This document shows, one piece after another, positions 1-57,800 of a stretch of DNA of 64,000 nucleotides (position 1 is the stretch's first letter; each line of letters opens with the position of its first letter). Under the pieces are notes generated by a model. That model searched no databases. It saw nothing but the letters and a program-made list of their open reading frames with translations, and was not told the origin of the DNA. The DNA is from a virus. The translations under genes and the position numbers were made by a program. The stretch is from the IMG/VR virus record IMGVR_UViG_3300021185_003853, positions 50,313 through 114,312 of that record, one strand, 5' to 3'.

Positions 1-40
1 TACAAGTGGTTCACAAGGAGTAGCAGAAGAAGATGAGTAA
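1..40 (+). CDS. 3' end of an upstream ORF truncated by the window (possibly gp5 or a gp5-region gene)
   Basis: Frame from base 2 reads TSGSQGVAEEDE then TAA (38-40) and overlaps the next ATG at 33. Identity is inferred from position only. Confidence 0.3.
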   Translation, partial: TSGSQGVAEEDE

Positions 41-1946
41 TTGTCCAACTAGTTTACCATTAAGTCAATTAACTGATACTGATGAATTTAAAAATATTTT
101 ATCAGGCGAAGATCTATTAAACTTAACAGATCCCACAAAGCAATTGAATCAAGCATTGTTGTCTGTGACTACGGATACGATAAATGATAAATTAAATGAT
201 CAGAAGACGAAGCAATCTCCATCCGCATATACGTTTGATCAGTTTGAAGATGACTATCCTACACTAGCTAAAAAGATACAAGACGATGATATTAGTCTTG
301 GTGAAGTCGCTATATTCGCAACTGAAACAGGTGCCACCCTGCAATCCCCCTTGAATAGTGCGTTTGACGATCCTGTAGATGGCGTTGATACTGAAGGAGT
401 AACGACTGGGGATACTATTAAGGCGGGGCAAGTATCATTAGATTTTCGTGCATGGACTCCAGGATCTTATCCTACGGCACAAATTGCTGGTGCATTAGCA
501 TTGTTAGATACATTCCTTGATGATAATATAGGGTCATCATTATCGGGGGGTCAATGTGCCGCCTTTGCTGCTTTGGGTAATTCTTTACAAAGTTTATTAC
601 AATCTATGAAAGCAAAGGCAGATTCACTTGATAGCATACCTGGATTGGATCTTAAGAAGTTTACATTAAGTGAAATTTTATCAGGAGAAGTGATAAAGGT
701 CAAGTTAAAATTAGAAATGATTGGTAAATTAATTAAGGATACTGTAGAGAAAGTTATTGAAAAGGTTAAGAATCAAGCAAAGTCACTCGTTGCTTCACTT
801 AAAGATCTTCCTAATTCATTACAAGCACAGTTAAATAAGGCACAAGCGAAGGTTGCGGCATTCACATCTGACAAGAATAAGAACGGTGTGATGGATGGAA
901 TTGATAAAATGATTGCGAATGTTGGATCAATGTTCGAAAAATTAACCCCTGCTGTATTGGGTTTATTGTTGTTTCGTTTCTGTCAAGTAACAAGTGCTAT
1001 ACAAAATGCAAGTGAAACTCCTTTAAAATCATTGATGAATACAGTGAATGGCATTCAAGAAACACAAAAAATCATGAAGAGTGAGAGTGCAAAGGCAACA
1101 AAAACCGCTGTAGAGTCAGGTGCTAACCGCATGGATGCTGATGACGTTGAAAAACAAAAGGAAAAAGCGCAAACAGAAATGCGTGAACGTAGTACGAAAC
1201 TTGATGATCTCGTTGAAGGACACAAGTCTCTATACGGTGAAGGTGATGGTGTCGGTCAATTGAATACTGATAGAACGATTAATAATGATTCATTAGTATA
1301 CGATTTCATGAAGTCATATCCACGACCGAAGAGATCAAAGGATTTGCCTAAGGAATTAAGACCCTATGTTTCTAAGCTAGGTAACGATACATCTATTACT
1401 GGCGGTATTGGACCCATCAAATTTAAGGGAGGATCACAGATTGCGACTACACAATTACGTAAGAATGGTGATGATACTGGTGCTCCGGGCCCGGGTTGGA
1501 CTCTAGTACAAACGAAACTATGGGTACAGATACTAGATATGGCAAATCAATTAGATGAAGATATACTTGTAATCAAAGGGTTCGATTATGAATCTAAATC
1601 TAAATATCGTAAGAAAGGACAAATAGTAACTATAGAATTACCCTCTGATGATATAACTACACAATTAAGATATCTTATTGCCGCTTCCCGTGCAGGACTT
1701 AAAGGAATTCTTCTAGGCACGAACCCAGGAAGAATTACTGTAGGTAATTCTGCTCGTGGTGGATGGTTAAGTAAAACTTTACAAAAAGAATATGATGATT
1801 TATTTAAAGGTGCTACTGCGGATGAACGTGTTGAGTCATTCACTGCAGGAAAGGATAATACATCTATATTCGCATTAAGAAGTGCTTTAAAAGATCATAA
1901 GCGTGATGCATGGTATCCTAGAGTTGCCGTCAAGAATGATAAATAA
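33..1946 (+). CDS. Baseplate-region protein: helical N-terminal part plus degenerate peptidase M15-like C-terminal domain
   Basis: 637 aa ORF with AAGGAG upstream, directly before gp25. The C-terminal GW..V...LW...GF...KGQIVTI...AASRAGLKGI...RITVG..R.GW follows the M15A pattern but lacks the Zn ligands. Confidence 0.6.
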   Translation: MSNCPTSLPLSQLTDTDEFKNILSGEDLLNLTDPTKQLNQALLSVTTDTINDKLNDQKTKQSPSAYTFDQFEDDYPTLAKKIQDDDISLGEVAIFATETGATLQSPLNSAFDDPVDGVDTEGVTTGDTIKAGQVSLDFRAWTPGSYPTAQIAGALALLDTFLDDNIGSSLSGGQCAAFAALGNSLQSLLQSMKAKADSLDSIPGLDLKKFTLSEILSGEVIKVKLKLEMIGKLIKDTVEKVIEKVKNQAKSLVASLKDLPNSLQAQLNKAQAKVAAFTSDKNKNGVMDGIDKMIANVGSMFEKLTPAVLGLLLFRFCQVTSAIQNASETPLKSLMNTVNGIQETQKIMKSESAKATKTAVESGANRMDADDVEKQKEKAQTEMRERSTKLDDLVEGHKSLYGEGDGVGQLNTDRTINNDSLVYDFMKSYPRPKRSKDLPKELRPYVSKLGNDTSITGGIGPIKFKGGSQIATTQLRKNGDDTGAPGPGWTLVQTKLWVQILDMANQLDEDILVIKGFDYESKSKYRKKGQIVTIELPSDDITTQLRYLIAASRAGLKGILLGTNPGRITVGNSARGGWLSKTLQKEYDDLFKGATADERVESFTAGKDNTSIFALRSALKDHKRDAWYPRVAVKNDK

Positions 1947-25300: not shown

Positions 25301-26593
25301 CATCACCTAAGAGCATCGAATCAGTTGAAGATCGCATCTCTTGGTAACGCAACACTACCAATCACATACAATGTATATGGCGGAGGATCGCCAGCAGCAT
25401 TTGGTGACGGAGAGGTTGCAACGCATACTTACGGAAGTTCACAGAGCCACCATATTGTAAAATACGGTGCTTCATACTACATCGATGGTGGTGACCGTGG
25501 CACTGTTCGTCTGTACAGCCATAATAATAATAGCCCCGTTGCTGCATATGGCAAGAAATGGGAAATGGGACAAGCAATCACCAGCGGCGTTCTTAATTTG
25601 AATGGGCAAACTCAAACATCGGGTGGCGAAGCATTGCCAATGCTAGCTGGCGGCAATAATGATTTGTCGTTACAATACTTTATGGGTGCAGAGTTAAAGA
25701 CTAACAGTGCTCTTGATGCAGGCATTAAAGTTGTTTGGGTCGATACTGCTACTGATAGATTGTATTTCTCAAGAAATCCTATAGGAACTGGTGTTACATT
25801 GATTCCTGATCGTGGTGAACTTGTTTACGGATTAGAGACAAAAGATTTCATTCTAAGCACTGTTGAAGGAAACCCTGTACGTAACAGAGTACAAGTGTAC
25901 CCAACAAAGTTATCAAGTGCAAATCTTAACTCTGGTCCTGTTCGATTAACTATGAAAAGAACTCCGATATTCCAGACCCTTACAACTATTGATTCAAGTT
26001 CAGCGCTCGCAATAGGATCAGATCCTTATATTGTAAGTGCTTCTAATGACCCATTGAACGTAGCAGAAACGAATACATATTTACAAAACGGCGAATCAAT
26101 TTACGGATGGTTCCAGGGAGTTATCGGCGCAATTGACGAAGAAACAATTTTCGGCAGATTGTATAAGAAAACAAATAGTTATTATTTTGAAGTTTTGCAA
26201 TCATTTGGTGATACAATCACGCTCAATGCTGATGGCAAATTTCTTCCTGATGTGAGGTATGTGAGAAACCCCTCAGGTGAAATTACCGGCCTTGTTGCCG
26301 ACACAGTAACAAAAACAGAAGTTCCTTTGCAGGATACATTGACATCAATTAAAGTGTTTGATAATCCTGTTACACCCATTCCGGGTACAGGTGCCAATGT
26401 CGCTACGCTATACTTAGCACAAAATGGAACAGAGCAGTTAGATCTCGATACGTATTTTGATTATAATAAAGAATATCTATCCTACCCACTAACAGATGAA
26501 GCGGAAACATTGTATTTTGTTGTTGATAAAGATACAGCAGCAGATGCTACCCCGAATGAAATAGCAATAGGATTGACATGGGAAGAACAATAG
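22319..26593 (+). CDS. Large virion structural protein with an insertion carrying two KCxRD helical repeats
   Basis: 1424 aa; shares FRYQPGRVS, KIExSWYGA, RWVRxH and YYIDGGD with the next gene; ends WEEQ. Confidence 0.75.
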   Translation: MSSLTNINNNTRVVNVGRTTPVAPGQQPASKSIPVVLATDQTAIPVVEQNKVQSEVSLSLLGIPRSEVALGIFADVNTYDVNPSEWSSSPQYYISGDIGGHGIKHLPTEAGALVEAPRDESAVLTSKRFFRYQPGRVSAATFGIKSSISTADYARNPAIRKYGIFDNFDGYYWETKQSGKGDNFNVVRRTQSLMHFPPSPFGLTNEVLRKPNPAADDEPIPYNQTDDYRIIGKEGKELKTDVLERDRQVLSDNILSIAKNAFNNLLTASGGTNDFADFYNNTNGNGNNSANEGLATPYDRYEFKQKCHRDVQFALKMMLMDLEWGGDAHTRINTKNYQTGLFNSYFPNTATGTPVPPGQFELDLHTNARAIAVGLPGLTSPGVSKIGALYDFLVKVSGTNNKGFFNRIVAGVSATNAYPPITGTNASLTTLSYGSKSKVDTLIDTRKHYWSYFVSSFVFVNNDPDNTATKQTYKFNAFANYLPEGYNASLIGKELSGSNYPYALNESIDGVPLADAADVLAVNEFYRNIKYKCARDLEYIVNGYKDDIVGGGNAQTLYNASMYYKAAGLSIFTQEDSDIPREVAKHNHLKQWIQSDFEDSDITGFDLPVTSPEIVKLNSLYGIIDSNFVRETKEGVELGSRGFAGNLIAFRDGLLMTHAAVNDPSMLKDAKQIRTTVKEQFDDSQPTCFKLATGNVTFGQNVKVLTTGNETQISDGNNFTSDTTGNVVETVVAEYGGIYKVSRVYGPTGSEFTLQDQDGNDIYAMRGSADSGTLITDTIVIETVVAFIGDVVYNPAEYRLATGIRAERTIQSYDGTDDTIQYTENTDPFPKGMQWPYRYSSSAQLGDATAKFIGHIDTSLSPNDATEIGTIRQQYDEINFTPEYINWIKNNVKPEYWGVYEYRVPRSRFSHDKLDGKTSKRVYSDLATGNTGIVRPGMEVLDEDGIWTDAVSEYDFDFTKVTMLKIEFSWYGAVGALFLAYVPIGNGEARWVRVHHLRASNQLKIASLGNATLPITYNVYGGGSPAAFGDGEVATHTYGSSQSHHIVKYGASYYIDGGDRGTVRLYSHNNNSPVAAYGKKWEMGQAITSGVLNLNGQTQTSGGEALPMLAGGNNDLSLQYFMGAELKTNSALDAGIKVVWVDTATDRLYFSRNPIGTGVTLIPDRGELVYGLETKDFILSTVEGNPVRNRVQVYPTKLSSANLNSGPVRLTMKRTPIFQTLTTIDSSSALAIGSDPYIVSASNDPLNVAETNTYLQNGESIYGWFQGVIGAIDEETIFGRLYKKTNSYYFEVLQSFGDTITLNADGKFLPDVRYVRNPSGEITGLVADTVTKTEVPLQDTLTSIKVFDNPVTPIPGTGANVATLYLAQNGTEQLDLDTYFDYNKEYLSYPLTDEAETLYFVVDKDTAADATPNEIAIGLTWEEQ

Positions 26594-29500
26594 ATGCCAA
26601 GACAGGTCAAAATTGGATTTGATAAGGTACCATCACCTCCAGTAAAAACGTATCATCAACTTACCGACATTTTCGGTACGCCGCTAGAAGATCTAGCAGG
26701 CAACCCTCTTGTTACAGAAGAAAATTCTGTAATATCTACCTTCGCACAGGCAAACAATTCATTATCGAGTTTTGTTGCTAATAAAGAATCGTCAGAAAGC
26801 ATTCCTATAGCAGAGAAATTTGGCACTGACTCAGAGGTAAGTACTACACTCCTAGGTGTGACTCGTGCCGAAGAACAGTTGAGTTTATTTGCCGATGTAT
26901 CGACATATGGATTAGATGCATCTAATTGGAATTATTATACTGTAGGTCAAGGCAATTATCCTGTGCAATGGTATAGTAGAAAACATCCCGTTTTCGGCAA
27001 ACGAGGTTTTGCGGCATTTAAAGAAGAGACAAATGAGCAGGCATTGTACCTGAAATCTTTTCCTACGCAATTTCGTTATCCTCGTCATCCGAGCAAATCA
27101 ACTGACACCTTCTCTCCGACAAGTGATTTCGGTAAATACATAAGATTTATTGCTTTAGGAAGATGGCTATTTGAAATATGGAAAGATGTAGATCCTGTAT
27201 TTGCTGAAAACAACTTCTTGACAGATTGCTTGACTATTATCAGCTCATCAAAACAGCATATCCCAATAACAAAGCAATCATGGAACATGACTCCTGCGGG
27301 CGGATTTGCGTCTGAAGCACAATTCCATAATATAGTATACACATCAGATTCAAATAATGGCGATGACGATATACAAATTGCGATGGATCAAATTGAAAAA
27401 TGGACTCTGTTCTATTTCAGAATAAGAAATGAAACAGACACATATCCAAAATATGTGATTAATAACGGAGATGGATCAACGACAACATATCCTGTATTCA
27501 ATCTTGAGGTGTTTACAAATAATCCTATCCCAAATGTAGGACAATACTTGTATATTCGTGACTATGTAAGCGCTGAAGTAACACGTCCAGGAGGATCTTC
27601 AATAAACTCTTCAATAGGAGTTTTAGAAAGTCGAAAAACATTTAGGTATCAACCTGGTCGTGTATCAGGATTCACATTCGGATTAAGGTTAAAGAATAAT
27701 CCGGGGTCATCGGCGGACAAAATTGAATGGGGTTGTGCAAACCAGACAGATCAATATATGTTCCAGATTTCAGGTACAAAATTTAATATTGTTCGCAGGT
27801 CAACTATTGCGATTCCTAATGATGTTGTTGAAGAAGAAGGCGGCATGAACCTTGTTCCTGCTTCAGATTTCCAGACGGATGAACCAGAAGTCCCGCCAAG
27901 TCGTGATAACTCAAAACCTATGTACACTCTCACAATTCCTCGTGACAAATGGAACGGAGATAGATTAGACGGAAGTGGTCCCTCAGGGCATATCATTAAT
28001 CCTGAAAATGTTACAATGTACAAAATTGAATATTCATGGTATGGTGCAATTGGCGCAAAATTCTATGCATATGTTCCGATAGGTGGTGATGAATGCAGAT
28101 GGGTACGTCTACACACATTTGTAATCGAAAACAAATTACCTAATCCTGTTTTAGAGAACGCTGATTTTAAATTCAGATATGTGCTTTATAATAACGTAAC
28201 CGAGAATTTAACTGAACCTACGTTCATTTACAAATATGGGTCGTCATATTATATCGATGGAGGTGATGAAGGAAGTATTACTCTAAATTCAGTCACATCA
28301 GGTACAAGAACATTTGTAAACCCTAATAATACTGGCGCAATTATGGCGCTTCACCCCAAAGATTTAATATTTAACTCTTCAACAGATACGATATATGGCG
28401 GAACGGCTAACAATAAAAAAATATATCCGTTGACACTATCTGTATTTTCAAGTGATAATGTGCGTATTGATGTGAGTAAGGTTAAAGTTAGTCCTGATGG
28501 TCAACACGGCACAAAGTCGGTTGATCTTATAGCAGGCACTGCGTTCGAAAAAGATATTAAATTTACGATAACTGATAGAAGCCTTATAAATTTAACTGGT
28601 GATAGCCCGTCTTCATTTGATGTGCTAGACACAAACGCAAAGATTATCGGAGACGGTCTTTATAACATTTATACCGGCACTCTTTTCAACGCATTAAATG
28701 AAGTAAACACGACAAAGGCTGAGATACTGAGAAGAGAACAATATCGATTAGGTGCTGACACAATAGGTGAAGCGGTAAGGCTTGTTGACGACACAAGTAT
28801 TAATATTAATCCCACTGTAGACACAACAGTTTTCAATGCTAAACTTACTTCATATAGGAGTATAGTTGCATCTGACACTCCTATTCGAACTAATAGATTT
28901 AAAATACACTTCTTGAATCCCACAAAACGTGACTCGAGATATTCTTATTTTCATTGGGCTGATTTCGCAATAGGTGTTACTGGTGAAGCGCCGACAACAA
29001 CTGTTGAGAATACTCAAGCCGGACAACAAGGATATCTAAAATTTGGTGCATATGATCGTGTTTATCACGATACTATTCCTGAATCAGATTATGATAATAA
29101 TTATTATTTTGATATTAATAAGCAATTAATGGTTGAATGGACGAATCAACATCATGTTAATTCATTAAGAGATGTTGCTGATCTGCGTGAAGTAGAAGGA
29201 GCCCATGGCACCCGTCTCGAGCAAGATTATCGTATTCGGGGCACTGATCTACCTATGAGCAGAAAATTGTCTACTGGAAGAGTTAGCACAAAAGGTGTGC
29301 TAGGATGTGTTAAAGGTGAAGTGAGGGTTATAGAGTACCCGATATCTTTAATTGATGATCAAAATGTTCCCGTAAATGCTGACTTGAGGGTCGTCTTCAG
29401 TACTGCCGCATTTCCTCCTGTAACACAAAATACACTAGGAATTGCTGAATTAGGATTTAATGAGACAGGGTCGGGATATGTATTCATGACTGCGCCTGCT

Positions 29501-30190
29501 GTGCAGATAATAGACGGCGCACAGGTGTATGTTGCATATATCAAAAAACTAAACGGTGCGGCATCAGTAGCCGATTTTGCATTAACAGGAAGTTCGACAA
29601 CTTATGATCAGTCAACTCATGTCACATCAATTCAAGCAAAAGTTATTACACTAGAAGATGATAATAAAATTTCGAGTTCTGATAACGCAAAAGATTTTGT
29701 AGTACAGGACGTATATAGATTTAATATTCAGCCTTTGTATTTGTTTGTTGCAATGAAGTCAAACGCTCGAATAAATAATATCATCGTTGAAGAAATTACA
29801 TCAACTGAAAGAACGTCACATGTACCTAACTTTATAGGTACTACTAATGATATAGGATTTGATGATACATCGAACATAACAATAGAAAAAGATGTGTTGA
29901 CATCACATACCTTGTCACCTTCAAATTTTGTTCCTAAAGATGGATTATCAGGAATAAAGTTTGATATTAACACAAGCAATCCTGTTGCAGACGAAAAAGA
30001 AAAATTATATTCATTTTATGTGGGGCAAAACGAAGCTGTGAAATTTGGATTACAAGAAATATTTGATATTGATCGTGCTTACTTGACGAGCGGATTATAT
30101 AACAATGAGGCATTATATTTCAATGCGGTTCCCGTAGGCGATAATACGTCTGCTGATGTTCAAATGACATTAACAGTTAAGGAGCAGTAA
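26594..30190 (+). CDS. Large virion structural protein, paralog of 22319-26593
   Basis: FADVSTYG, FRYQPGRVSGFTFG, KIEYSWYGAIGA and YKYGSSYYIDGGD; ends VKEQ. Confidence 0.75.
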   Translation: MPRQVKIGFDKVPSPPVKTYHQLTDIFGTPLEDLAGNPLVTEENSVISTFAQANNSLSSFVANKESSESIPIAEKFGTDSEVSTTLLGVTRAEEQLSLFADVSTYGLDASNWNYYTVGQGNYPVQWYSRKHPVFGKRGFAAFKEETNEQALYLKSFPTQFRYPRHPSKSTDTFSPTSDFGKYIRFIALGRWLFEIWKDVDPVFAENNFLTDCLTIISSSKQHIPITKQSWNMTPAGGFASEAQFHNIVYTSDSNNGDDDIQIAMDQIEKWTLFYFRIRNETDTYPKYVINNGDGSTTTYPVFNLEVFTNNPIPNVGQYLYIRDYVSAEVTRPGGSSINSSIGVLESRKTFRYQPGRVSGFTFGLRLKNNPGSSADKIEWGCANQTDQYMFQISGTKFNIVRRSTIAIPNDVVEEEGGMNLVPASDFQTDEPEVPPSRDNSKPMYTLTIPRDKWNGDRLDGSGPSGHIINPENVTMYKIEYSWYGAIGAKFYAYVPIGGDECRWVRLHTFVIENKLPNPVLENADFKFRYVLYNNVTENLTEPTFIYKYGSSYYIDGGDEGSITLNSVTSGTRTFVNPNNTGAIMALHPKDLIFNSSTDTIYGGTANNKKIYPLTLSVFSSDNVRIDVSKVKVSPDGQHGTKSVDLIAGTAFEKDIKFTITDRSLINLTGDSPSSFDVLDTNAKIIGDGLYNIYTGTLFNALNEVNTTKAEILRREQYRLGADTIGEAVRLVDDTSININPTVDTTVFNAKLTSYRSIVASDTPIRTNRFKIHFLNPTKRDSRYSYFHWADFAIGVTGEAPTTTVENTQAGQQGYLKFGAYDRVYHDTIPESDYDNNYYFDINKQLMVEWTNQHHVNSLRDVADLREVEGAHGTRLEQDYRIRGTDLPMSRKLSTGRVSTKGVLGCVKGEVRVIEYPISLIDDQNVPVNADLRVVFSTAAFPPVTQNTLGIAELGFNETGSGYVFMTAPAVQIIDGAQVYVAYIKKLNGAASVADFALTGSSTTYDQSTHVTSIQAKVITLEDDNKISSSDNAKDFVVQDVYRFNIQPLYLFVAMKSNARINNIIVEEITSTERTSHVPNFIGTTNDIGFDDTSNITIEKDVLTSHTLSPSNFVPKDGLSGIKFDINTSNPVADEKEKLYSFYVGQNEAVKFGLQEIFDIDRAYLTSGLYNNEALYFNAVPVGDNTSADVQMTLTVKEQ

Positions 30191-33100
30191 TGGCTATATA
30201 CACAGGTCTTAATGTATCATTACACCTAAATGATTTAAATAATTCTAGCGAGTCTTTAAGAAACTTGGGAATGGATCGCAAGGATTTTGATCATATTCGT
30301 GGGCTCAGTAATGTTTTAGAGACAAGGAACCAGCTTCATTTGCTAGGAAACCTTGACGTTGATCAACAAAAACAAACATATCTAATGTATCGATCAGCAA
30401 CCAGTATGAGTGCAGAATTAGATAATATTGATGACACGAACAAGCCGTTACCTTACGATATTCGCATCAATAATCAGTTACGTGCTGGCGCAATAAAATA
30501 TAAGTATTTAGACGGATCAAATACAATTAAAAGTGCTGATATTTCGACAAGTCGTGTATCTTCGTGGTCGCAGATAGGTGACGGGCCGATCTTTTACGGC
30601 GCTGATGTAAATATTAATCCTTATGATGGATCTGATGCTTCAACAGGCGATCCCAACAAAAGCATTTTAAAATTAAAAGATATCGTATTTAAAGGCGAAT
30701 TTTCTCCTAAACGATTTGCCGCTGAAGTTCCTACGCACACGGTCACTGTAAATGTAAACGGAGTTGATCGTGAATTATATGCTATGCGCAACATTCCTAT
30801 GCGATTTGAAGGTAATTTTTCTAGTGCAAAAGTTACATATTCAATTGATAATGCATCTATTGCGCCGACAGTTTTATTTGTAGATCCTCAAAATTTTGAT
30901 CCGCAGTTAGAGATTGCCGTAACAGGTCCTACGAGTACACTAAATCATACCGCTGAAGTAACAAACATCAAAGGCGGCGATAAATTTATTGATATTTACT
31001 ATAGACCTGATGGGTTAAAAAAGTTAACATTGCCTGCTATGCAACTGTTTGATTTCCCTGCAATAGAGTTAAGGAATTTAAATTCAATATCTGTTGCAAA
31101 TAATAAATTAGAAAATATGCCCGATTGGTTTGCTATCAGCGGAGGCAACCTTACTGGGCATACACAGGCATTAACAACAGTTACAATGTCAGGTAATCCG
31201 CTATATAAATCTTCTGATGTTGCCAACACACAATTGCAAAAACTGCCCAGGTCAGTGCAAACATTAAATATACATGGATGCTTTTCTGATTCAACTCCTA
31301 TTGATATAAGCCAATTAAAACAAGGTGGAGGATCAACAACTTTAGTCGACTCGAATTTAAAATATTTCAGGTTTAGTGGATGGAATAATAATAAAAGAGT
31401 TGACATGAAAGATACAGGCACAACACCAAAGGTCAATGTTTCTACGATTCTGAATTATCAAGTCAGATATCATCCGTATACTCGTTTAAGTTATAGTGCA
31501 GCAGGCGCACCAAATTTGAACAGCTTAGATCTTTATGGAATGAATATAAATTCAGCAGAGCAAGCAAATGGATCAACAACATCAACGATCACAATTGCTT
31601 CTTCAGGCATTCAAACTATAAACATGGACTATAATGCTATAGACGTAATAGACGTCTCGGGTAAACAAGAACTTACATCTTATACACACAGACATAATCA
31701 CAATAGTGCAAACAATAATATAGAAACATTGTTTACTGGATGTGTTGCGTTATCTTCTTTAGATTTTGAAAATTCGAGTGTGACAGGAAACTTAGACAGT
31801 ATTTTCACGGGACTTCCTGAACTATCATTACTAGATTTGCGAAACACTAGATTGACGGGAAAGATGACCGCTAACGCTTTCGCCGGAACGAAATTACAAG
31901 AATTTAGCTGTACAAATGGCCAATTTGTTACTGCAGCCGGCCAAAACAACTTTTTCGGCAACGACCATATCCCTATAGCAAATGAACCTCCCGGAGCAGT
32001 AGGGTCAGATTATGCTGGTGGTTATTATGCAGGAACAATTGTTGATAACAGCAACGAAGAGTATTGGTTAGTTGTTTCAGATAAAAGTCACGAAGTCATA
32101 CGTTCACGATATGCAATTCTTGGAGGTAACGGAACTTCTGGGTCAACAGATGCAAGGACTGGCTTAGATAATACTACTGTTGAATTTAATACCTCAGATT
32201 ATGAAGCAGCGAGTTATGCTTTGGGATTGAGTGTTACAGATGGCGATACAACATACGATGATTGGTATATTCCGTCAAAAAGTGAACTTGAAATGATGTA
32301 TCGGAATTTCAAACCGACATCAACACCTAATGACACATCAAGCGGGAACAATCCTCATTCTAGGCCAACATATACGACAACCTATAATGATAACCCGATA
32401 AATCCCACACAAACGCCTTTCAGTGCTTTTCAGACAGGTGGCGCACAAGCATTTTCAACGCCTGCGCCTCAACAATATGTGTCTAACTTCAATTTCTCTT
32501 CAGGGACAACTGGGTGGACAGGGTTTAATGGCGCAACAATATCTGTGCCACAAGGAAGCAGTAATAAGATTCGTGTAGCGCAAGATTCTGCCGGAACTGC
32601 CGCATCAGGAACGCCAAGTGCAACCGATGCAGTTGCCGGTAACGCAGGTGTATTCCAGACGGTAACTCTACCTGCTGGGACATATGATTTTGATTTTGAA
32701 TTTGCTGCTTCTAGAGCAACAATCCCTTCTGGGTCATTTGTTTCTGGTGAGACATATGAAATTGTAAGTTTAGGAATTGCACCAACATTTAATAATATTA
32801 CATATTCAAGCATCAATCAAACCAATGATAGAATCACGCTAGGTTCTGGGCACGGATTAACTAACGGAACAATTGTTACATTTAGTCATGTTTCAGGTGT
32901 CACAGAAAGTTTTACAAATTTAGCTACTGGGACAAATTACAGGGTTGTTGATACAGCGGCCGCTTCTATTAAATTAGAACCTGTCGGTGGCGGTGGCGCA
33001 ATTGATATTGCTCAATCTGCAGATGTGACTCATGCATATACAATTACTGCCGGTGACGGAACTGATTATACGTTTGATGCAGGAACGGATCGATCTGCTG

Positions 33101-34608
33101 CTGCAACCGGAACAACAGATCCTGACATTATCATACTTTTAGGTGATACAGCAACATTTGATTTAACCGCTTTGGCAGGCGCTCATCCTTTGTATATAAA
33201 AACAGCATTAGGTTCAGGCACAACAAATCAAATAACAGATGCAACTGTAACAGGTCAAGGCACGGACAATGTCTCATTCACTCCAACATCAGCAGGACAA
33301 TATTTTTATCAATGTTCTGCTCATCCTGATATGGAGGGAACAATTACTGTACTGCAAAGAACAGGAACATTTGGTATTGCTGTTGATCTTGCAGAGAATT
33401 GGAGTGATATTGGTGCAAGTACTGTTGCTGTGGGAGCAAACTTCGATGCTTCAGGGTCATATGCTACAGGAACTACTCTTTACGGTGCATCTGTTGCACT
33501 CGCAAGTAGCAACGACCTTTATGAGCATTATGTGTACGGATTAATATCACCAGGAACTGACCCTGATGCTTCAACCATAGGAAATTCAGTTGCAAGCTAT
33601 TCATATGATGTTATAAACGATACTGCTACGATTTCAGGTAATGGGACTACTTCTGCAAGCACATTTACTGTTGATGCGCAAGCAACATATGTTGTAAGTT
33701 TAAAATCATTTGCATTTGATCTTGATGTCACAAAAATATCAATTCGAAGCAGAGAAGGATATTATTGGACATCAACTAGCTCATCAGCTGTTAATACTCA
33801 GGGTATTGCACAAAACTTCGACAATGGTGAACAGGTTGATGTGCATAAAGATCACAGATATTTGGTGCGCCCAGTTAGGCGAGTAAGTAAAAACTCTGAC
33901 GTATCTGCTGAGCAACAAGGCACATCATTAACATTCCAACCTGTTCAATCAACTTTGGTTAATTTTACGCTTGAAGGTCAAGGAAGAAATGCATCGACAG
34001 GGCCTAATGTACGAGGCAAGATGCCTAATACTGCATATCTTGCACAAATACAAACCTTTAGTTTGACCAATACGCAAATCGAAGGAATTATTCCTGATTT
34101 CAGCAACTCTCTGAACTTGAATAAGTTGATTTTAAGCAATAACAATTTTACAGGTCCTTTTGCAATTAACAATCCTTCAGTGGCGCAAGTTGAAATTCAA
34201 AATAACAACTTGACAGGGATAGGGTCACTATTTGCTGCAAATATGTGGAAATTGCATGGTCAGGATAACGATTTTGAAAATGCTGTGCCGTCTTTCGTAG
34301 CGTGTCAAGATATATCTGATATAAATTTAAGCAGGAATCAGTTTACTGGGTATTTGGCAGGGTCTTTGTCCACAAACCTCGAATTGAAAAAATTAAATTT
34401 ATCAGAGAATGCATTAACAGAGGGTGCTGCACAGAGAATATTCGAAGACATGATGACAAACTGGACTGCTAATACACGAGATGGAGTGACTGTAAATCTA
34501 TCGGGCAATCCTCAAGTGAGAGAATCTAGATTAATTAAAAACGCAACCACAGGCGGAATTATACGAGAGTTAAGATCTGTTGGTTGGACAATATTGCTCA
34601 ACGCATAG
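30190..34608 (+). CDS. Leucine-rich-repeat virion protein with nested DUF1566-like, CBM-like and cupredoxin-like domains
   Basis: LRR units (LNSISVANNKL, LSLLDLRNTRLTG, LNKLILSNNNFTG, LKKLNLSENAL); DWYIPSKSEL and YYWTST...VRPVRRV; YFYQCSAHPDMEGTITV. Confidence 0.75.
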   Translation: MAIYTGLNVSLHLNDLNNSSESLRNLGMDRKDFDHIRGLSNVLETRNQLHLLGNLDVDQQKQTYLMYRSATSMSAELDNIDDTNKPLPYDIRINNQLRAGAIKYKYLDGSNTIKSADISTSRVSSWSQIGDGPIFYGADVNINPYDGSDASTGDPNKSILKLKDIVFKGEFSPKRFAAEVPTHTVTVNVNGVDRELYAMRNIPMRFEGNFSSAKVTYSIDNASIAPTVLFVDPQNFDPQLEIAVTGPTSTLNHTAEVTNIKGGDKFIDIYYRPDGLKKLTLPAMQLFDFPAIELRNLNSISVANNKLENMPDWFAISGGNLTGHTQALTTVTMSGNPLYKSSDVANTQLQKLPRSVQTLNIHGCFSDSTPIDISQLKQGGGSTTLVDSNLKYFRFSGWNNNKRVDMKDTGTTPKVNVSTILNYQVRYHPYTRLSYSAAGAPNLNSLDLYGMNINSAEQANGSTTSTITIASSGIQTINMDYNAIDVIDVSGKQELTSYTHRHNHNSANNNIETLFTGCVALSSLDFENSSVTGNLDSIFTGLPELSLLDLRNTRLTGKMTANAFAGTKLQEFSCTNGQFVTAAGQNNFFGNDHIPIANEPPGAVGSDYAGGYYAGTIVDNSNEEYWLVVSDKSHEVIRSRYAILGGNGTSGSTDARTGLDNTTVEFNTSDYEAASYALGLSVTDGDTTYDDWYIPSKSELEMMYRNFKPTSTPNDTSSGNNPHSRPTYTTTYNDNPINPTQTPFSAFQTGGAQAFSTPAPQQYVSNFNFSSGTTGWTGFNGATISVPQGSSNKIRVAQDSAGTAASGTPSATDAVAGNAGVFQTVTLPAGTYDFDFEFAASRATIPSGSFVSGETYEIVSLGIAPTFNNITYSSINQTNDRITLGSGHGLTNGTIVTFSHVSGVTESFTNLATGTNYRVVDTAAASIKLEPVGGGGAIDIAQSADVTHAYTITAGDGTDYTFDAGTDRSAAATGTTDPDIIILLGDTATFDLTALAGAHPLYIKTALGSGTTNQITDATVTGQGTDNVSFTPTSAGQYFYQCSAHPDMEGTITVLQRTGTFGIAVDLAENWSDIGASTVAVGANFDASGSYATGTTLYGASVALASSNDLYEHYVYGLISPGTDPDASTIGNSVASYSYDVINDTATISGNGTTSASTFTVDAQATYVVSLKSFAFDLDVTKISIRSREGYYWTSTSSSAVNTQGIAQNFDNGEQVDVHKDHRYLVRPVRRVSKNSDVSAEQQGTSLTFQPVQSTLVNFTLEGQGRNASTGPNVRGKMPNTAYLAQIQTFSLTNTQIEGIIPDFSNSLNLNKLILSNNNFTGPFAINNPSVAQVEIQNNNLTGIGSLFAANMWKLHGQDNDFENAVPSFVACQDISDINLSRNQFTGYLAGSLSTNLELKKLNLSENALTEGAAQRIFEDMMTNWTANTRDGVTVNLSGNPQVRESRLIKNATTGGIIRELRSVGWTILLNA

Positions 34609-34617
34609 GTATCATAA

Positions 34618-35754
34618 ATGGCAATCGGATTTGCAAAAACATCAAACTTATTCGAATCGCAAGATTCAAATTCTGCGACTAAAATATTTAACAATCTTGC
34701 AGGAGAAGGCATTTCTTCTGATATTGCGTTATTTACGAATAACTTACGCACAGTAACTGAACTTGATTACACAAATTTCAAAGCAAGTGCGCAATCTTTT
34801 CCTTCTCCAGATGAGGTTTTTTATACTGTAGGAAATGCTGCCGCATACGAGTTTATAGTCATTCCTTCTAGCGACTTCGGCAAAGTTCCGTTTAGTAATA
34901 ATTCGATCATATATGTTGTACAGAATAATAGTATTAAAACTTCGTATATAGTTGACGACAGCAATGGCATCGATAGGTTCAGACTTTATGCTTGGAACGG
35001 CACAACAAAAGGTGCTGTCGCATCATGGGACGATTTTAAGGATCTTGCAACCAAAAAGTTTTTTAGGCCAGATCCTGTCACATTTGCTAACATAACCAAT
35101 TACTCTAAAGATCGCATAACAATGAACGATGAGTCAACATCTTTAGAGAATCCGTATTCATTACCAGAAGAGTTACAAACTAGCAATAGAGATCGGTCAC
35201 AACAAGTAACATTTCTAAAAACTCTTACGCCACAAAGTTTGAATAGTCGAATTGATAGTGCAATAGAGAGTTTTCAGTATAAAGAATCAAGAAGTATACT
35301 TACACACAGAAAGGCTATACTTAATAAATTATTGAACGTGGGCGGCACTTTGCAAATAGCAAATGATGCTGGCTTAGTGCTAGGCACTACAGCAACCAAT
35401 GACACGATGCCAGGATTATATATCATGGCTGATGGCGTTAAGGAAAGAGCGTTTTCTGACACGAACAACCCATGGGTTGTAGGGACTGAAGATTTGATTT
35501 CTTATGATACTGATGACACTGTGCTCGCAACAGAAAGTTTTATAAAAACTGCTTCGACAACACAAGATGCACAAGTGTTCAATCTGCTTTATAAGGGTCC
35601 CAATCCACACATAATAACAACAAACGCTTCAGGTGTCAGGACAACCAATGGTTCAAAAGTAGTCGACTCAACATGGACACATAAAGCGAAAGTTGAAATT
35701 AATGGCGAAGCATATTATATATTACTAACCGATCAAGCAAGCACCTTTACTTAA
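34618..35754 (+). CDS. Hypothetical virion protein related to both neighbours
   Basis: 378 aa; N-terminal GF...NLFE......IFNNLAG; C-terminal THKAKVEINGEAYYILL. Confidence 0.65.
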   Translation: MAIGFAKTSNLFESQDSNSATKIFNNLAGEGISSDIALFTNNLRTVTELDYTNFKASAQSFPSPDEVFYTVGNAAAYEFIVIPSSDFGKVPFSNNSIIYVVQNNSIKTSYIVDDSNGIDRFRLYAWNGTTKGAVASWDDFKDLATKKFFRPDPVTFANITNYSKDRITMNDESTSLENPYSLPEELQTSNRDRSQQVTFLKTLTPQSLNSRIDSAIESFQYKESRSILTHRKAILNKLLNVGGTLQIANDAGLVLGTTATNDTMPGLYIMADGVKERAFSDTNNPWVVGTEDLISYDTDDTVLATESFIKTASTTQDAQVFNLLYKGPNPHIITTNASGVRTTNGSKVVDSTWTHKAKVEINGEAYYILLTDQASTFT

Positions 35755-38300
35755 TCCATTAATATCCAATAATCTTTGTAGGTGCTTGCGCCTGTTTTCT
35801 CTTTTAACAGCAACCCTTTACTTGCTGTTGCTGCTGTAGGAGAACTGACCTCTGTTGTATCTGCCTGTTCAATATTGATACCGGTTATTTCAAAGTCTCC
35901 GCCTATGGATAAATGCGGATGCGATGCAACTGTTGATAGTCCCAAGTCAGTTCCTGCAAAAGGTGGTGCAGTATTTAATGGGATAATACACAATTCTTTA
36001 TCGCCGGTTGACGGATCGCTTCCGGGATCATTCGCATCTTTTACAAATATTAATGTTCTTGAAGCAGGCAAACTGCCAATAAGTCCTGTTGATAATGTAA
36101 TTGACGGAGGATTTGTTGCACTATTTACGCTAGAAACTCGAGTCGTATTTGTCCCTGAAACTATTCCCGGGAGTTGTACGAAATCACCGCTACTACCTGA
36201 AGTAATATTACTCACATCTGTTAAGAATATTTGCGTGGCGCCAGAATTTGCTGTAACAGCGACTTCTTTTCCGTAAACACCTTCACATTGTGCAGACGTT
36301 GAATGATCAGATAGCCCACGATGAGCATATACAAGACACCAATTGTACGCATCACTATTAAATGTTTCGTTTCCTATAGGATTTGACGTAACTACAACAG
36401 TATCCATGCCTTGTGAGGTAGTAATACTAACGATATCTACTAATTTCCTGCATGTATTTTGCGTAGTGTTTAATGTTATCAGAAGATCATCCGGACGCAT
36501 ATCACTTGAGTTGTATTGGTGTCCTGTATAGGGTGTTGTAACCGTAGCATCTCCAGTCCATGAGTTACCCGCTTCTTTTAAAAAATGATTAGTCTCTGTA
36601 GCTGATGATAAATTGCGATCAAATTGATGTTGAAAGATGCCCAACAATCCTTTTGGCTTAACAACAAAATAATTTTGCGATTGGCCGATTGGCATGGCTC
36701 CTGCGATAGCAGCCAGATCTTCGACCATCGACCCCTTAAAGGGTTCCGTGATAATAATATTATCTCTTACTTCATGTACTTGAAAATAGTAGTAGTGAGT
36801 GCCATCGGCAAAAGCAGGCAACAATATATCACCTTCTTCAACAAATGTTGCTGATGTGACAAACGTCTTTCCGCCTAAATATGTAAAGGGATAATTTGCA
36901 CCGCTATTTTTAACATAATCATTTACAGAGGTTGTCGGCGCATAATCAATGTACACGGGTTTTTCGTTCTGTAGATACTGATCAGTCTTTTTCAATCTAC
37001 CGCTGATTCTATTTCTTTTGAAATGATCAAATGTGTTCACCTTTGCTACGCTATCAGGTGTCAATTGCGGCGTTTTATACCAATAGTTAAAAGGTGTGGT
37101 GCTTGCGGAAGTTTCAGCTGTATCATGTATGTTGAAAAAGAATTTTAACGGGCCATATGTAGTCACATCAGTTTTAAAGTTTGAGCTGCTTCCGTCTGAC
37201 ATTCCCGGAATAAGAGTGTGGTCTCCCCCAAATTGCTCTGGACGTGGGTACCATACAGTTAGTCGTATTCTATTCGTTTGTCCTTTGGCTTTACTGCCAA
37301 ATGGGTTAAAGTCGACACGTAAATCATCTTCACCTATATTCCATGTAAATCCCAATCCCGCCCCGGCAGATACATCATTTAACCCTGATCCTGGTCCGTC
37401 AATTTTTTCAATATCGATTGTGTTAGCAGAGTGATTTACATCTATTATTTTGTATGTGCTAGACCCCTGAGTTATTTTCATTCCTTCCCATGCATATTGC
37501 ATAGATGTGGAAGTGATTTGAATTCCGGTCAGCTGGTTTGCATTATTGGCAATACCGACTTCTAGTTCGAGCATCACCTCATCAAGACCTTCACCTGATA
37601 CACGCTTTATAGTTTCCCATGCTGAGGTTGATTCATTGTATTCTTCGAATAAGCAAAATGCATTAGTAATAATTGATAAATCATTATTATGATATGCTGA
37701 AAAATGTCCTTCCCAGCACAGAGCGCCAAAAGATGATGTAAATGTCGGATGCAATGGTCCACTGAATGCAAATCTGCCGTCAATCCAATAATCTTCATCC
37801 GTTAATATTCTTCCTGCTGCATTTGTTGTATCGAAAATATCATCAGCAGTAATAGTATGGCCCGTATCGCTAGCCCACTGTTCAATAAACAGCCTACCTG
37901 CCGCATCTTTTAATGCTTCGGGGGGAACAACAAATGCATTCGGGCCCGTACCGCCTAAGTGATATGCGGGATCACCTAACACAACTTTCTTTGTTTGGAT
38001 TATGTCTTTAATTGTGATCAACGGCTCAACAGGTGCAGGAACACCTATAGTGAGTCCGCCAGTATTAGGATCAGTTACAATTGGAGTATATAACACTTCG
38101 GTGTTTGCAAGAGGCGCTAAATCTTCAGCAAATACATTTGTAGTTTTTAATCCGTTGATTACTGTTAGATCTGATGGCGTAAATGTTTGCCCAGGTGTAA
38201 AGTCATCTAGGATATTTGCCAATGCCTTTGATTTATTTGTAAGATCTGATAGATTTCTATCTGCTCTTAATCCGAACCTTGTATATTTTGAAATTGCCAT
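35751..38300 (-). CDS. Reverse-strand virion protein, possible PA14-like domain
   Basis: 849 aa with GAGG RBS and a late promoter on the minus strand; GLRADRNLSDLTNKSKALANIL start. The YWIDG...LCWEGHF...RIRLTVWY PA14-like pattern is tentative. Confidence 0.75.
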   Translation of the reverse strand: MAISKYTRFGLRADRNLSDLTNKSKALANILDDFTPGQTFTPSDLTVINGLKTTNVFAEDLAPLANTEVLYTPIVTDPNTGGLTIGVPAPVEPLITIKDIIQTKKVVLGDPAYHLGGTGPNAFVVPPEALKDAAGRLFIEQWASDTGHTITADDIFDTTNAAGRILTDEDYWIDGRFAFSGPLHPTFTSSFGALCWEGHFSAYHNNDLSIITNAFCLFEEYNESTSAWETIKRVSGEGLDEVMLELEVGIANNANQLTGIQITSTSMQYAWEGMKITQGSSTYKIIDVNHSANTIDIEKIDGPGSGLNDVSAGAGLGFTWNIGEDDLRVDFNPFGSKAKGQTNRIRLTVWYPRPEQFGGDHTLIPGMSDGSSSNFKTDVTTYGPLKFFFNIHDTAETSASTTPFNYWYKTPQLTPDSVAKVNTFDHFKRNRISGRLKKTDQYLQNEKPVYIDYAPTTSVNDYVKNSGANYPFTYLGGKTFVTSATFVEEGDILLPAFADGTHYYYFQVHEVRDNIIITEPFKGSMVEDLAAIAGAMPIGQSQNYFVVKPKGLLGIFQHQFDRNLSSATETNHFLKEAGNSWTGDATVTTPYTGHQYNSSDMRPDDLLITLNTTQNTCRKLVDIVSITTSQGMDTVVVTSNPIGNETFNSDAYNWCLVYAHRGLSDHSTSAQCEGVYGKEVAVTANSGATQIFLTDVSNITSGSSGDFVQLPGIVSGTNTTRVSSVNSATNPPSITLSTGLIGSLPASRTLIFVKDANDPGSDPSTGDKELCIIPLNTAPPFAGTDLGLSTVASHPHLSIGGDFEITGINIEQADTTEVSSPTAATASKGLLLKEKTGASTYKDYWILMD

Positions 38301-38987: not shown

Positions 38988-40846
38988 TGAGCACTATTAA
39001 ATTAAGACGATCATCACTAACAGGCACACCTATTGTCGGTACGCTCGGCGAAGGCGAAATCGCATATTCTTTTTTAGCAAATAATGGGTCGAATGGCGGT
39101 GACATTTTATACATTGGTACAACTGATGATGCATCATCTTTATCTGTGCCGATAGGCGGTAAATATTTTACTGACCTGTTAGGAGCATCGGCAGGAACAT
39201 TGCCTGCAAGTAAAGCAATTATAACAGACGCAAACTCTCGTGTCAACGAAATAAAAATCGGTGACACCACAAACCATTTACAATTCATTGCAACAACCGG
39301 TGAAACTGCCGCTCTAAATTTAACAATTAGCGCAGGTGGATTAAATTTCTCTGGCGGCAATCTTGTGTCGGATGGCACCGCAACAATTACTGGTTTGCCC
39401 ACTCCCACAAATGATTCTGATGTTGCAACAAAAGGATATGTCACAACTGTTGCATCAGGTCTTAATATCTCTGCCGGAGGACAATCAGGAACGGTTGATG
39501 GAGGTCAAACTTTCTCATTTGCTGGCGATCAGGGTGTAACAGCAATATTCGATGACGCTACTGATACTTTAACAATTGGATTGCAGCAAGTTCTGGACAC
39601 AGATGCAGATGTTGCATTCGGATCAGTCACGGTTGGTGAAACATCGGATAGGATAAAAATTAGCAATGATACTGTCGAGCAAGTAGAACCGCAAATCTAC
39701 GTAGAATTTGACGGGTCAGACACTAGTGTTGTGGACTTAACAACAAATACGTTTACTGTTAACAATCATGGATTATCAGATAACGATGTTGTCACCTATA
39801 CTCACGCTGGGACAGGTTCAGCATTTGATGCATTGACTCCAGGAACTTCTTACTATGTTGTGAACTCGGATATCAACACATTTAAATTATCTGCTCAACT
39901 GGGCGGATCGATTCAAGATATTCATTCACAAGCAACTGGTGGCGGAACATCAGATGTAATAAAAACTGCTTCAAATCCTCTCAATTTATTTGCGACAACT
40001 GATCAAATCACATTAGGTTCAAGTGTTAATAGTACAGTTGCAATTCAAGATAATCTAACAGTCGGCGGAAACGCAATAATCACTGGCGACTTAACTGTAA
40101 ACGGAACAAGCACCACTGTTAATTCAACGGTTGTTCAAGTTGATGATCCTATACTCGAACTTGGCACAAACTCAGTTGATTATGACGGATTAGGTCGTGG
40201 CGTCAAGTTCAATTATAGCGAAAGTGGAAATAAAGTCGGTTTCTTCGGTTATGATGTTAAAAACGCTGCTGACGACACATCAGACGGTTCAGGTAAATTT
40301 AGATTTTTGACTGATGCAACAAATGTTGATGCTAATAATTTAGGTGGAACTGTAGGAACCATTATAGCAAATGTTGAGGGTGACGTTACAGGTAATGCTG
40401 ATACCGCAAGTGCATTTGATAGTGACAGATCTATAACAATAACAGGTGCCGTAGAAAGCGGTGCTGATGCCGGTTCGGGTTTTGTTTCAGGTGCTGTTAC
40501 ATGGGATGGTTCTGGCGCATTAACGATTGACACAAGATTAACATCATCAGTCGGTTCACTTTTAGGATCTTATGTTGAAAATGTGACGATCCCGGGAACA
40601 TACGATGGCTCATCTGTTTTCACTGCAGTAACTGGAGGTAGTGCGATTGTTGTTGATAGTATCAACAGTCAAACTTCAGGTAACAGAATAAGTGTTGATG
40701 TTAATACGGCGACAACAAGAGCAAACGCAACAGGTATCACAAAAGCAGAATTAGGTGTTGCATCGTTTAGTGCTACATCATTCAGTGTTACTGATGGGTG
40801 GGTTGATCTGAATATCGTAGACGGCGGGTCATACGGCACTGGATAA
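38987..40846 (+). CDS. Tail fibre-like protein
   Basis: IKLRRS...LGEGEIAY start; PTNDSDVATKGYV; GDLTVNGTSTTVNST; one HG-L module; terminal DGGSY. Confidence 0.75.
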   Translation: MSTIKLRRSSLTGTPIVGTLGEGEIAYSFLANNGSNGGDILYIGTTDDASSLSVPIGGKYFTDLLGASAGTLPASKAIITDANSRVNEIKIGDTTNHLQFIATTGETAALNLTISAGGLNFSGGNLVSDGTATITGLPTPTNDSDVATKGYVTTVASGLNISAGGQSGTVDGGQTFSFAGDQGVTAIFDDATDTLTIGLQQVLDTDADVAFGSVTVGETSDRIKISNDTVEQVEPQIYVEFDGSDTSVVDLTTNTFTVNNHGLSDNDVVTYTHAGTGSAFDALTPGTSYYVVNSDINTFKLSAQLGGSIQDIHSQATGGGTSDVIKTASNPLNLFATTDQITLGSSVNSTVAIQDNLTVGGNAIITGDLTVNGTSTTVNSTVVQVDDPILELGTNSVDYDGLGRGVKFNYSESGNKVGFFGYDVKNAADDTSDGSGKFRFLTDATNVDANNLGGTVGTIIANVEGDVTGNADTASAFDSDRSITITGAVESGADAGSGFVSGAVTWDGSGALTIDTRLTSSVGSLLGSYVENVTIPGTYDGSSVFTAVTGGSAIVVDSINSQTSGNRISVDVNTATTRANATGITKAELGVASFSATSFSVTDGWVDLNIVDGGSYGTG

Positions 40847-56853: not shown

Positions 56854-57800
56854 TGTTCGGAAATAAATTCTATCATCAAACAACTCGCAGGTATGTTGCA
56901 CTTTTCGGAACATTATTCAATGATATTATAATTGAACGAAAGGACAATTCTGGGCAATTAATTCAGTCAATGAAAGTGCCTATTCACTATGCTCCTATGG
57001 AAAAAATCCTTGCGAAGATTGAGCAAGACCCTGGTCTGAATAACCCTGCAGGAATGACGTTGCCGAGAATGTCATTCGAAATAGTTAATATGAATTTTGC
57101 TCCAGAAAGAAAATTAACATCATTGACTAAAAACACAAGGGTCTCAGATACAAATGATATACAGTCGTCTCAGTTCGTTCCTGCGCCATATGATATTGAA
57201 TTTCAACTAAATATTATGACAAAGCATACTGAAGACGGATTGAAGATCATAGAACAAATTATGCCTTTCTTCAAACCTGATTTCACAGCATCTGTAAAGT
57301 TGGTTGATGATATGGATTTATATGTCGATGTTCCTGTCATAATGAATAATATAACGATGAGCGATGAGTACGAAGGTGATTTCACAACAAGGCGTGTTTT
57401 AAATTGGTCGCTAAGTTTTACTATCAAAGGTTATTATTTTGGGCCTGTTACAAACAAAAAAGTTATTAAGTTTGTTGAGACGCAAACATACGAAGATTTA
57501 CCTTTCGTAAATCCTGCAGATCAACCCGCATTGCAACAATATACAGTACAACCAGGTGATCGTGTTACTTCAGGATCTTTCCAGGCAGCGAAAACATATA
57601 GGATATTAAATCTTGGCCAAGGCACATCACAGCAATGGAATGATGTTGCAGGAACAACTGGCGTAACATATGATATTGGAACGCAATTTACAGCGCAAAA
57701 CGATGGCAGTGCGATAACCGGCGGCATTGCAACATTAACATACTCTTATTTTGATGAAGATGATAATTGGAGTGCTATTGTAGTAATTGATGAGGATTAA
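56853..57800 (+). CDS. gp15: Tail sheath stabilizer/terminator gp15 with C-terminal module
   Basis: MFG..FYH, FGTLFNDI, VPIHYAP, LPRMSFE, QIMPFFKP. Start is ATG 56853, overlapping the gp14 stop (TAATG). Confidence 0.95.
   Translation: MFGNKFYHQTTRRYVALFGTLFNDIIIERKDNSGQLIQSMKVPIHYAPMEKILAKIEQDPGLNNPAGMTLPRMSFEIVNMNFAPERKLTSLTKNTRVSDTNDIQSSQFVPAPYDIEFQLNIMTKHTEDGLKIIEQIMPFFKPDFTASVKLVDDMDLYVDVPVIMNNITMSDEYEGDFTTRRVLNWSLSFTIKGYYFGPVTNKKVIKFVETQTYEDLPFVNPADQPALQQYTVQPGDRVTSGSFQAAKTYRILNLGQGTSQQWNDVAGTTGVTYDIGTQFTAQNDGSAITGGIATLTYSYFDEDDNWSAIVVIDED

Follow-up and report, generated by a model that had tools for sequence, protein, structure and literature searches.

Results

Layout of the nested LRR gene

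The window analysed here is the 64,000 nucleotide stretch at positions 50,313 to 114,312 of IMG/VR virus record IMGVR_UViG_3300021185_003853. Within it we examined a single open reading frame (ORF) on the plus strand, 30190 to 34608, which encodes a 1472 amino acid (aa) LRR protein (P0001) whose residue n begins at nucleotide 30190+3(n-1). An earlier reading of the letters of the window, hereafter the original prediction, had claimed that the LRR solenoid of this protein is interrupted by domains inserted one within another to a depth of six levels. The parts assigned in the present study are listed below in order along the plus strand, with the evidence for each in brackets.

30190 to 34608, plus strand: whole ORF, 1472 aa, in a block of tail-fibre and baseplate genes (PHROGs context).
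31006 to 31980, plus strand: layer 1, first part of the LRR solenoid, aa 273-597 (Pfam LRR_8; VIA-align with 5jfi_A and 4ow2_A).
31981 to 32469, plus strand: layer 2, N-terminal part of the Lcl_C/DUF1566 (C-type-lectin-like) domain, aa 598-760 (residues 12-168 of the PMBT3 protein; HMM to position 168 of 212; 8q4e_A).
32470 to 32724, plus strand: layer 3, N-terminal part of the CBM-like beta-sandwich, aa 761-845 (2zew_A; uninterrupted in L008 and P0026).
32725 to 32778, plus strand: layer 4, N-terminal strand of the GSFV mini-module, aa 846-863 (HMM positions 1-17 of 60).
32779 to 33027, plus strand: layer 5, main body of the HG-L module, aa 864-946 (44 bits with the HMM of uninterrupted modules).
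33028 to 33354, plus strand: layer 6, intact cupredoxin, aa 947-1055 (Foldseek; 6tfd_A; homologue alignment).
33184, 33313, 33322 and 33331, plus strand: predicted type-1 copper ligands H999, C1042, H1045 and M1048 (invariant in alignment).
33355 to 33387, plus strand: return strand RTGTFGIAVD, aa 1056-1066, interpreted as closing HG-L (strand in both models; L021 counterpart GTGYKLTVD).
33388 to 33504, plus strand: layer 4, C-terminal part of the GSFV mini-module, aa 1067-1105 (HMM positions 24-57 of 60).
33505 to 33750, plus strand: layer 3, C-terminal part of the CBM-like sandwich, aa 1106-1187 (fold alignment; excision alignment).
33751 to 33927, plus strand: layer 2, C-terminal part of the Lcl_C/DUF1566 domain, aa 1188-1246 (Pfam Lcl_C 74-117; PMBT3 170-212; HMM 169-210).
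33928 to 34605, plus strand: layer 1, second part of the LRR solenoid and C-terminal cap, aa 1247-1472 (Pfam; insert-free orthologues; VIA-align).

The original prediction had placed the LRR break at 31985/33930, the DUF1566 halves up to 32460 and at 33760-33885, the CBM halves at 32470-32710 and 33500-33750, the GSFV halves at 32731-32775 and 33397-33500, and an intact cupredoxin at 33020-33355; overall these boundaries agree with the list above to within a few residues.

Folding of the separated halves

Two AlphaFold2 models, the first of aa 590-1250 (pLDDT 87.5, pTM 0.73) and the second of aa 273-1472 (pLDDT 89.0), were compared with solved structures by VIA-align and Foldseek. Constructs from which inner layers were excised were built in silico and scored with hidden Markov models (HMMs) made in this analysis and by pairwise alignments. 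The fold-search lists were dominated by CBM, LRR and cupredoxin matches; the GSFV module was too small to show up there.

The repeat profile of the outermost layer was recognised by Pfam (LRR_8, E 9.9e-7; 28.9 bits, cut-off 27). Its point of interruption was fixed by six insert-free orthologues of 789-841 aa (L009 to L013 and L020), which are without the aa 597-1247 stretch and align on both sides of it, so that aa 597 joins aa 1247 (nucleotides 31980/33928). The model of aa 273-1472 aligned by VIA-align over its whole length with the LRR proteins TDR (5jfi_A; Z 25.4, root mean square deviation (rmsd) 4.0, 468 aligned, model 1..1200), YopM (4ow2_A; Z 24.8, rmsd 4.1, 412 of 448 aligned, model 1..1199) and BRL2, the top structural match (9u0g_A; Z 27.2, rmsd 7.4, 465 aligned, model 1..1200). 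Since contiguous LRR ectodomains align over the full span, and since only about 550 model residues lie outside the insert, both LRR stretches are modelled as one continuous solenoid that spans the 650-aa insert.

The second layer was assessed with stand-alone relatives. The two halves, when joined, gave a single alignment (E 4e-25) with a 217-aa protein of Pseudomonas phage PMBT3, of which residues 12-168 align with aa 595-757 and residues 170-212 with aa 1191-1233. All 26 of the 26 stand-alone DUF1566-like proteins (about 215 aa) obtained from a library of 1.8 billion proteins aligned in two blocks across the same gap of about 430 residues. With an HMM made from these 26 proteins the excised construct gave one match of 181.9 bits (positions 18-210 of 212) and the intact sequence two fragments of 141.6 and 26.8 bits; the split falls between HMM positions 168 and 169 and measures 427 residues. 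The solved Lcl C-terminal domain 8q4e_A aligned with model residues 5..643 (Z 13.1, rmsd 2.7, 124/131 aligned, 24% identity). These alignments confirm, at the level of the model, that aa 598-760 and 1188-1246 fold together.

For the third layer, the CBM16 chain 2zew_A aligned with model residues 169..599, i.e., aa 758-1188 (Z 13.5, rmsd 2.7, 130/146 aligned), and chain 8xmz_B gave Z 13.4 with 129/137 aligned; many CBM4, CBM22 and CBM61 modules also aligned across model 169..599. A whole single domain is thus dispersed over 431 residues in the structural alignment. The sandwich is present uninterrupted, as about 138 aa, in the orthologues L008 and P0026, and full-length alignment of these with the window protein required the excision of aa 846-1105 from the latter. 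The predicted folding together of aa 761-845 and 1106-1187 was confirmed in this way. The name "CBM" is a fold-level assignment only; the search for a CBM family gave a weak Pfam match to DUF5013 (E 3e-4).

The fourth layer is a small module of 45-60 aa with the pattern GSF..G.TY.I..LG, a loop, and W.D..G....G..F.A..GS. An HMM of seven whole (uninterrupted) copies gave 37.0 bits for the excised construct (positions 1-57 of 60) and 19.2 bits for the intact stretch, which confirms from sequence that the module is split by its guest; the insertion lies in a variable loop at HMM positions 18-23. The window has whole GSFV copies at 6874-7056, 45541-45678 and 57567-57746; L005 carries them in tandem, and P0010 and P0011 have one at the exact same position of the stack. 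Together with whole HG-L modules the window copies are spread over at least six other virion genes of the phage. Neither kind of uninterrupted module matched a Pfam family, and the protein atlas offered CBM_5_12 for GSFV at 0.76, as a lead only.

The GSFV module was also encountered outside the LRR protein. In L021, the ORF that follows the LRR gene encodes 582 aa and corresponds by synteny to window ORF 34618..35754; at aa 342-497 of its product a whole HG-L module interrupts a GSFV module. Because this is a different protein, the GSFV loop is a recurrent insertion site.

The HG-L module of the fifth layer scored 44 bits at aa 864-946 with an HMM of eight whole modules, and whole copies occur in the window at 19538-19786, 39749-39976, 43316-43507 and 60444-60701; the three GSFV and four HG-L ranges bear out the claim that both modules occur uninterrupted elsewhere. 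HG-L is possibly an E1-FCCH-like barrel, given a weak similarity to Pfam E1_FCCH (PF16190; E 0.1 over 20 residues) and a protein atlas lead to E1_FCCH at 0.91, a lead only.

The guest at the centre of the stack is a cupredoxin, for which Foldseek returned pseudoazurin, rusticyanin, amicyanin and AcoP with probability 1.00 and VIA-align returned 6tfd_A (Z 9.9, 96 aligned, model 355..468). The models confirm it as an intact domain and as the innermost one predicted for the window protein. Its four ligand residues (CSAHPDM for the last three) are invariant in six orthologues, are kept in P0007-9 and L003, and were found in every cupredoxin-bearing orthologue inspected. The spacing of His999 and Cys1042-x2-His1045-x2-Met1048 is that of amicyanin. 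This predicted type-1 site would bind copper, and the conservation of the ligands argues that metal binding matters.

Layer series and recombination among relatives

About 25 orthologous contigs were found, and they bear out the expectation that orthologues without the inner layers exist. Six are the insert-free, one-layer forms named above. Three layers (LRR, DUF1566, CBM) are predicted in L008 and P0026, four layers (the same three with an uninterrupted GSFV module) in P0010 and P0011, six in P0007-9, L003 and P0002-5, and seven in P0006. The latter protein (1577 aa, 47% identical to the window protein) carries 109 additional residues within its cupredoxin (aa 1017-1125, …LIFSSPHGFTDGDEV…), placed after the HPLRI strand that bears the first copper ligand; this insert, a whole HG-L-type module, scored 34.5 bits over positions 6-85 of 87 with an HG-L HMM built without it.

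A scaffold tree was prepared from which the insert columns were removed. The insert-free forms branch first, and all forms with an insert at the LRR site make up a clade with 100% support, within which P0010 and P0011, with four layers, intermingle with the six-layer P0007 at 98-100% support. Strict layer-by-layer accretion was rejected as the whole story on account of this interleaving. Comparison of the window protein with P0005 revealed a mosaic block at aa 881-1066 (32830-33387) that is 85% identical between flanks of 37-60%, and its right edge is the return strand RTGTFGIAVD. This block implies a recent exchange of an HG-L plus cupredoxin cassette. From the interleaving on the tree and the contrast between block and flanks we conclude that HG-L, cupredoxin and return strand are, as judged from sequence, gained, lost or exchanged as one cassette. 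The original prediction of repeated loop insertion holds for the nested stack as such, with the qualification that growth did not proceed strictly layer by layer. P0071 was considered as a second home of GSFV[HG-L[cupredoxin]] and rejected, for it holds a ligand-less cupredoxin among other repeats.

Other occupants of the solenoid were also observed. L004, which lies inside the insert-bearing clade, has the LRR loop of the stack filled by unrelated sequence of about 490 aa (L004:4900-6375), in which repeated FG-GAP-like motifs were noted by eye (FGASVAMNDDYVFVG, YGSDVICDN, FGRAAAIAQLDDG); the L004 and L021 inserts gave no match with Pfam. A second insertion site in the solenoid, at 31324-31380 (aa 379-397), is empty in the window protein and is occupied by a whole HG-L module in P0008 and P0009 and by tandem GSFV-type modules in L005 and L016.

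Genomic context

The window is a series of large plus-strand genes to which PHROGs gives the names of baseplate wedge subunits, tail fibres and virion structural proteins. The product of 2381..4135 matches the gp6-like phrog_219 (E 1e-130), and its nearest cultured relatives are those of Sinorhizobium phages phiN3 and phiM12 (39% identity); the related contigs originate in marine metagenomes. Because of these PHROGs neighbours, gp6-like relatives and marine contigs, the gene at 30190..34608 is assigned from sequence as a late virion gene of a marine T4-like myovirus, within the baseplate/tail-fibre block. One further feature of the protein belongs here.

30190 to 31005, plus strand: N-terminal domain, aa 1-272, conserved (the best-conserved part among the orthologues).

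This domain belongs to no known family, a Pfam search having given no match, and is presumed to be the virion-attachment part.

Immediately upstream, 22319-26593 and 26594-30190 encode neighbouring paralogous virion proteins (phrog_1645), one of them with a large additional stretch. Downstream, an 849 aa ORF at 35751-38300 lies on the minus strand amid the otherwise plus-strand structural block; no other minus-strand ORF of at least 197 aa escapes overlap with a longer ORF on the plus strand. PHROGs gave no match for it, and L003, L004 and L005 have a counterpart in the same place and orientation.

Discussion

The explanation that we propose is a virion (tail or baseplate) LRR protein in which one loop of the solenoid would bear a stack, each unlike domain sitting in a surface loop of the one outside it, in the order LRR, Lcl_C/DUF1566, CBM-like jelly roll, GSFV, HG-L, type-1-copper cupredoxin. 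Every guest would be compact and would enter and leave through one loop of its host, so that the hosts could still fold from separated halves. The stack would have been assembled and reshuffled by module recombination, not by one-residue growth, with the LRR site acting as a hot spot that holds nothing, a three-, four-, six- or seven-layer stack, or the unrelated 490-aa insert, and with HG-L plus cupredoxin travelling as a single cassette. On the branch, two folds of the glycan-binding type and a copper domain would be held clear of the solenoid; exchanging the branch would alter what the phage binds. We consider this explanation, taken as a whole, to be likely.

Several of the results weigh against this explanation. 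One alternative is that the parts are ordinary linear domains with independent halves, the nesting having arisen from motifs picked by eye or from the AlphaFold2 input alignment. Pfam detects only fragments in the intact protein (LRR_8 at aa 521-565, Lcl_C at aa 1187-1230, and the end of the cupredoxin at aa 1018-1054). The Lcl_C/DUF1566 (PF07603) fragment covers positions 74-117 of 117 and is below threshold (25.3 bits, cut-off 34.9); no Pfam CBM family matched the window protein or the uninterrupted L008 copy; and the cupredoxin stays below the cut-offs for Copper-bind (17.1 to 19.6 bits versus 21.2) and Cupredoxin_1 (21.0 versus 27). Contacts between halves were inferred from end-to-end alignment to solved single domains, and the input alignment of the first AlphaFold2 model already had the stand-alone DUF1566 proteins split into two blocks, a help to the DUF1566 fold that the CBM-like fold did not have. 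No orthologue of the LRR protein with two or five layers turned up, a hint that pairs were moved already nested. The Lcl_C shortfall is attributed to the split of the domain; the N-terminal half alone gave 13.4 bits over positions 23-97, and uninterrupted references are matched over positions 23-117 (P0028, the sole one scanned of the 26) and 27-117 (the PMBT3 protein). For Copper-bind, the homologue P0153 scored 27.0 bits against the same 21.2. Linear domains are contradicted by the end-to-end alignment of solved single domains over gaps of about 430 residues (Z 13.1 to 13.5), by the unanimity of the stand-alone DUF1566 proteins in bridging the same gap, by the return of single full-length matches on excision (HMMs for DUF1566 and GSFV, end-to-end alignment with L008 and P0026 for the sandwich), and by orthologues that hold each host domain uninterrupted. 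We regard linear domains as highly improbable and the nested pattern as well outside what chance would give, and the claims that discontinuous halves fold together and that excision restores full-domain matches both stood. A closer contest is between six layers and five, the latter having HG-L and cupredoxin in tandem within the GSFV loop and RTGTFGIAVD as merely a return strand or linker. The tandem arrangement draws on the similarity of AIDIAQSADVTHAYTIT to the end of uninterrupted HG-L modules, e.g., IQVLSTQGTGNHTLT, on P0008, where the first HG-L profile aligned on through the first strand of the cupredoxin, and on the many homologous cupredoxins that are C-terminal domains placed simply after other domains. 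Scores separate the arrangements little: the profile test of the closing strand gave 44.7, 42.8 and 44.0 bits, with the tandem and nested alternatives less than 2 bits apart, and the semi-global alignment gave nesting a slight edge (118 versus 114 for tandem). The THAYTIT strand, in its turn, is part of the cupredoxin when this is aligned with solved structures and with homologues in other contexts. All six-layer orthologues keep the extra strand between the end of the cupredoxin and the GSFV "NW", a position at which whole GSFV modules hold nothing, and in the L021 downstream ORF the last strand of an uninterrupted HG-L module, GTGYKLTVD, adjoins the GSFV "W". Both models show strands 866-871 and 1060-1065 with confidence and with the same length (6 residues for 1060-1065). 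Uninterrupted HG-L modules (P0006 and the L021 downstream ORF) have entry and exit through one loop, so the last strand is needed back near the start. We consider the tandem arrangement rather unlikely, and a cupredoxin nested within HG-L, not behind it, to be probable. Of the six levels originally predicted, layers 1-4 and the innermost cupredoxin are thus upheld, and the step from HG-L to cupredoxin stands by comparison only; likewise, HG-L had been placed at 32785-33018 with a closing strand near 33361, and the body was recovered at aa 864-946 while aa 1056-1066 were assigned as its closing strand by comparison.

As to function, we infer an exchangeable host-recognition or adhesion branch because the gene lies in a tail-fibre block, the guest folds are typical of ligand binding, and the insert is swapped at a hot spot; in phages, diversity-generating retroelements are known to target the ligand-binding DUF1566 (PMC5758913, PMC8143477). 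A branch that projects from the solenoid and is tipped by the copper site is plausible. Alternatively, the stack could be decoration that plays no part in host specificity: it might adhere to particles or mucus in the manner of Hoc, or serve as a stabilising ornament whose metal site is structural. The related phages L009-L013 and L020 do without the insert, and binding could take place on the LRR solenoid itself. Swapping of an insert at a hot spot within a tail-fibre block is usual for receptor-binding parts, however, the DUF1566 and CBM-like folds are typical ligand binders, and the copper ligands are conserved in all of the cupredoxin-bearing orthologues inspected, and we judge decoration to be rather unlikely. 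Beyond the recognition branch itself, an exchangeable receptor-binding branch might carry a working blue-copper redox centre at its outer end, with the LRR and guest loops serving as a plug-in system in which pre-nested cassettes are swapped by recombination and the virion is retargeted. We hold this to be a doubtful proposal with a small chance of being right; if true, infection would require copper or an exchange of electrons with a partner on the host surface.

Nested insertion is known, and nests of great depth are very rare; among 2.7 million classified domains, a 2026 survey gives six-level nesting in SI3 of cyanobacterial RNA polymerase as an example of extreme complexity (PMC13114784; Protein Sci 2026;35:e70586). 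The SI3 region of beta' (rpoC2) has the same depth, a host and five successive insertions, and is likewise a lineage-specific elaboration of a simpler relative with guests smaller than their hosts. It is one fold (the hybrid motif) repeated within itself in an essential cellular enzyme, whereas the phage case is predicted to nest five different folds in a virion protein. Forms of the phage protein with one, three, four, six and seven layers also co-exist, unlike SI3, and P0006 goes one layer deeper. Plant LRR receptor kinases (BRI1/BRL) similarly carry a folded island domain, which takes part in ligand recognition, in a loop of a long continuous solenoid; this island forms one layer of about 70 aa, in contrast to a phage insert of 650 aa that is itself nested. 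The phage LRR is 18% identical to BRL2 (9u0g_A), sharing the repeat fold alone with no sign of common descent. The second layer has the fold of the Lcl C-terminal domain/DUF1566 (PDB 8q4e), and its DWYIPS..ELE and RPVRRV motifs are common to the stand-alone phage and bacterial proteins of about 215 aa, from which the phage copy differs in being split at one point by 427 residues.

The cupredoxin belongs to the same family as those of cyanophages (the P-SSM2 "putative T4-like proximal tail fiber" Q58M57; PHROG 9158), with 32-44% identity and an rmsd of 1.7 over 114 columns. These share the ligand pattern HP...YYYQC..H..M and are also virion proteins; the cyanophage domain is the terminal one of a linear chain, whereas that of the window is the innermost guest of a nest. 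Amicyanin/plastocyanin-type proteins have the same eight-strand Greek-key sandwich, and His with C-x2-H-x2-M are the ligands as in amicyanin; they are soluble electron carriers, and the window cupredoxin is by contrast a domain of a virion protein with a putative copper site. The same ligand-bearing cupredoxin was also seen to end tail-fibre, baseplate-connector and peptidase-S74 proteins of many cyanomyoviruses (records of P-SSM2, P-SSM5, P-HM2 and S-CAM4; BFVD Q58M57 and R9S891). A virion-borne blue-copper domain seems to be widespread; a literature search on virion cupredoxins found no description of one.

In its probable six-layer form the phage protein equals the six levels of the deepest example cited, and one relative exceeds it. 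New here are the use of five unrelated folds rather than one repeated fold, the occurrence in a virus, and the presence of natural intermediates. The relatives with one, three, four, six and seven layers constitute a test set for domain-parsing and structure-prediction tools and for the folding of discontinuous domains, and the nested stack offers a template for protein design by loop grafting. For the biology of the abundant marine T4-like phages, the finding points to an LRR-based, exchangeable host-recognition branch and to a conserved predicted copper site on their virions.

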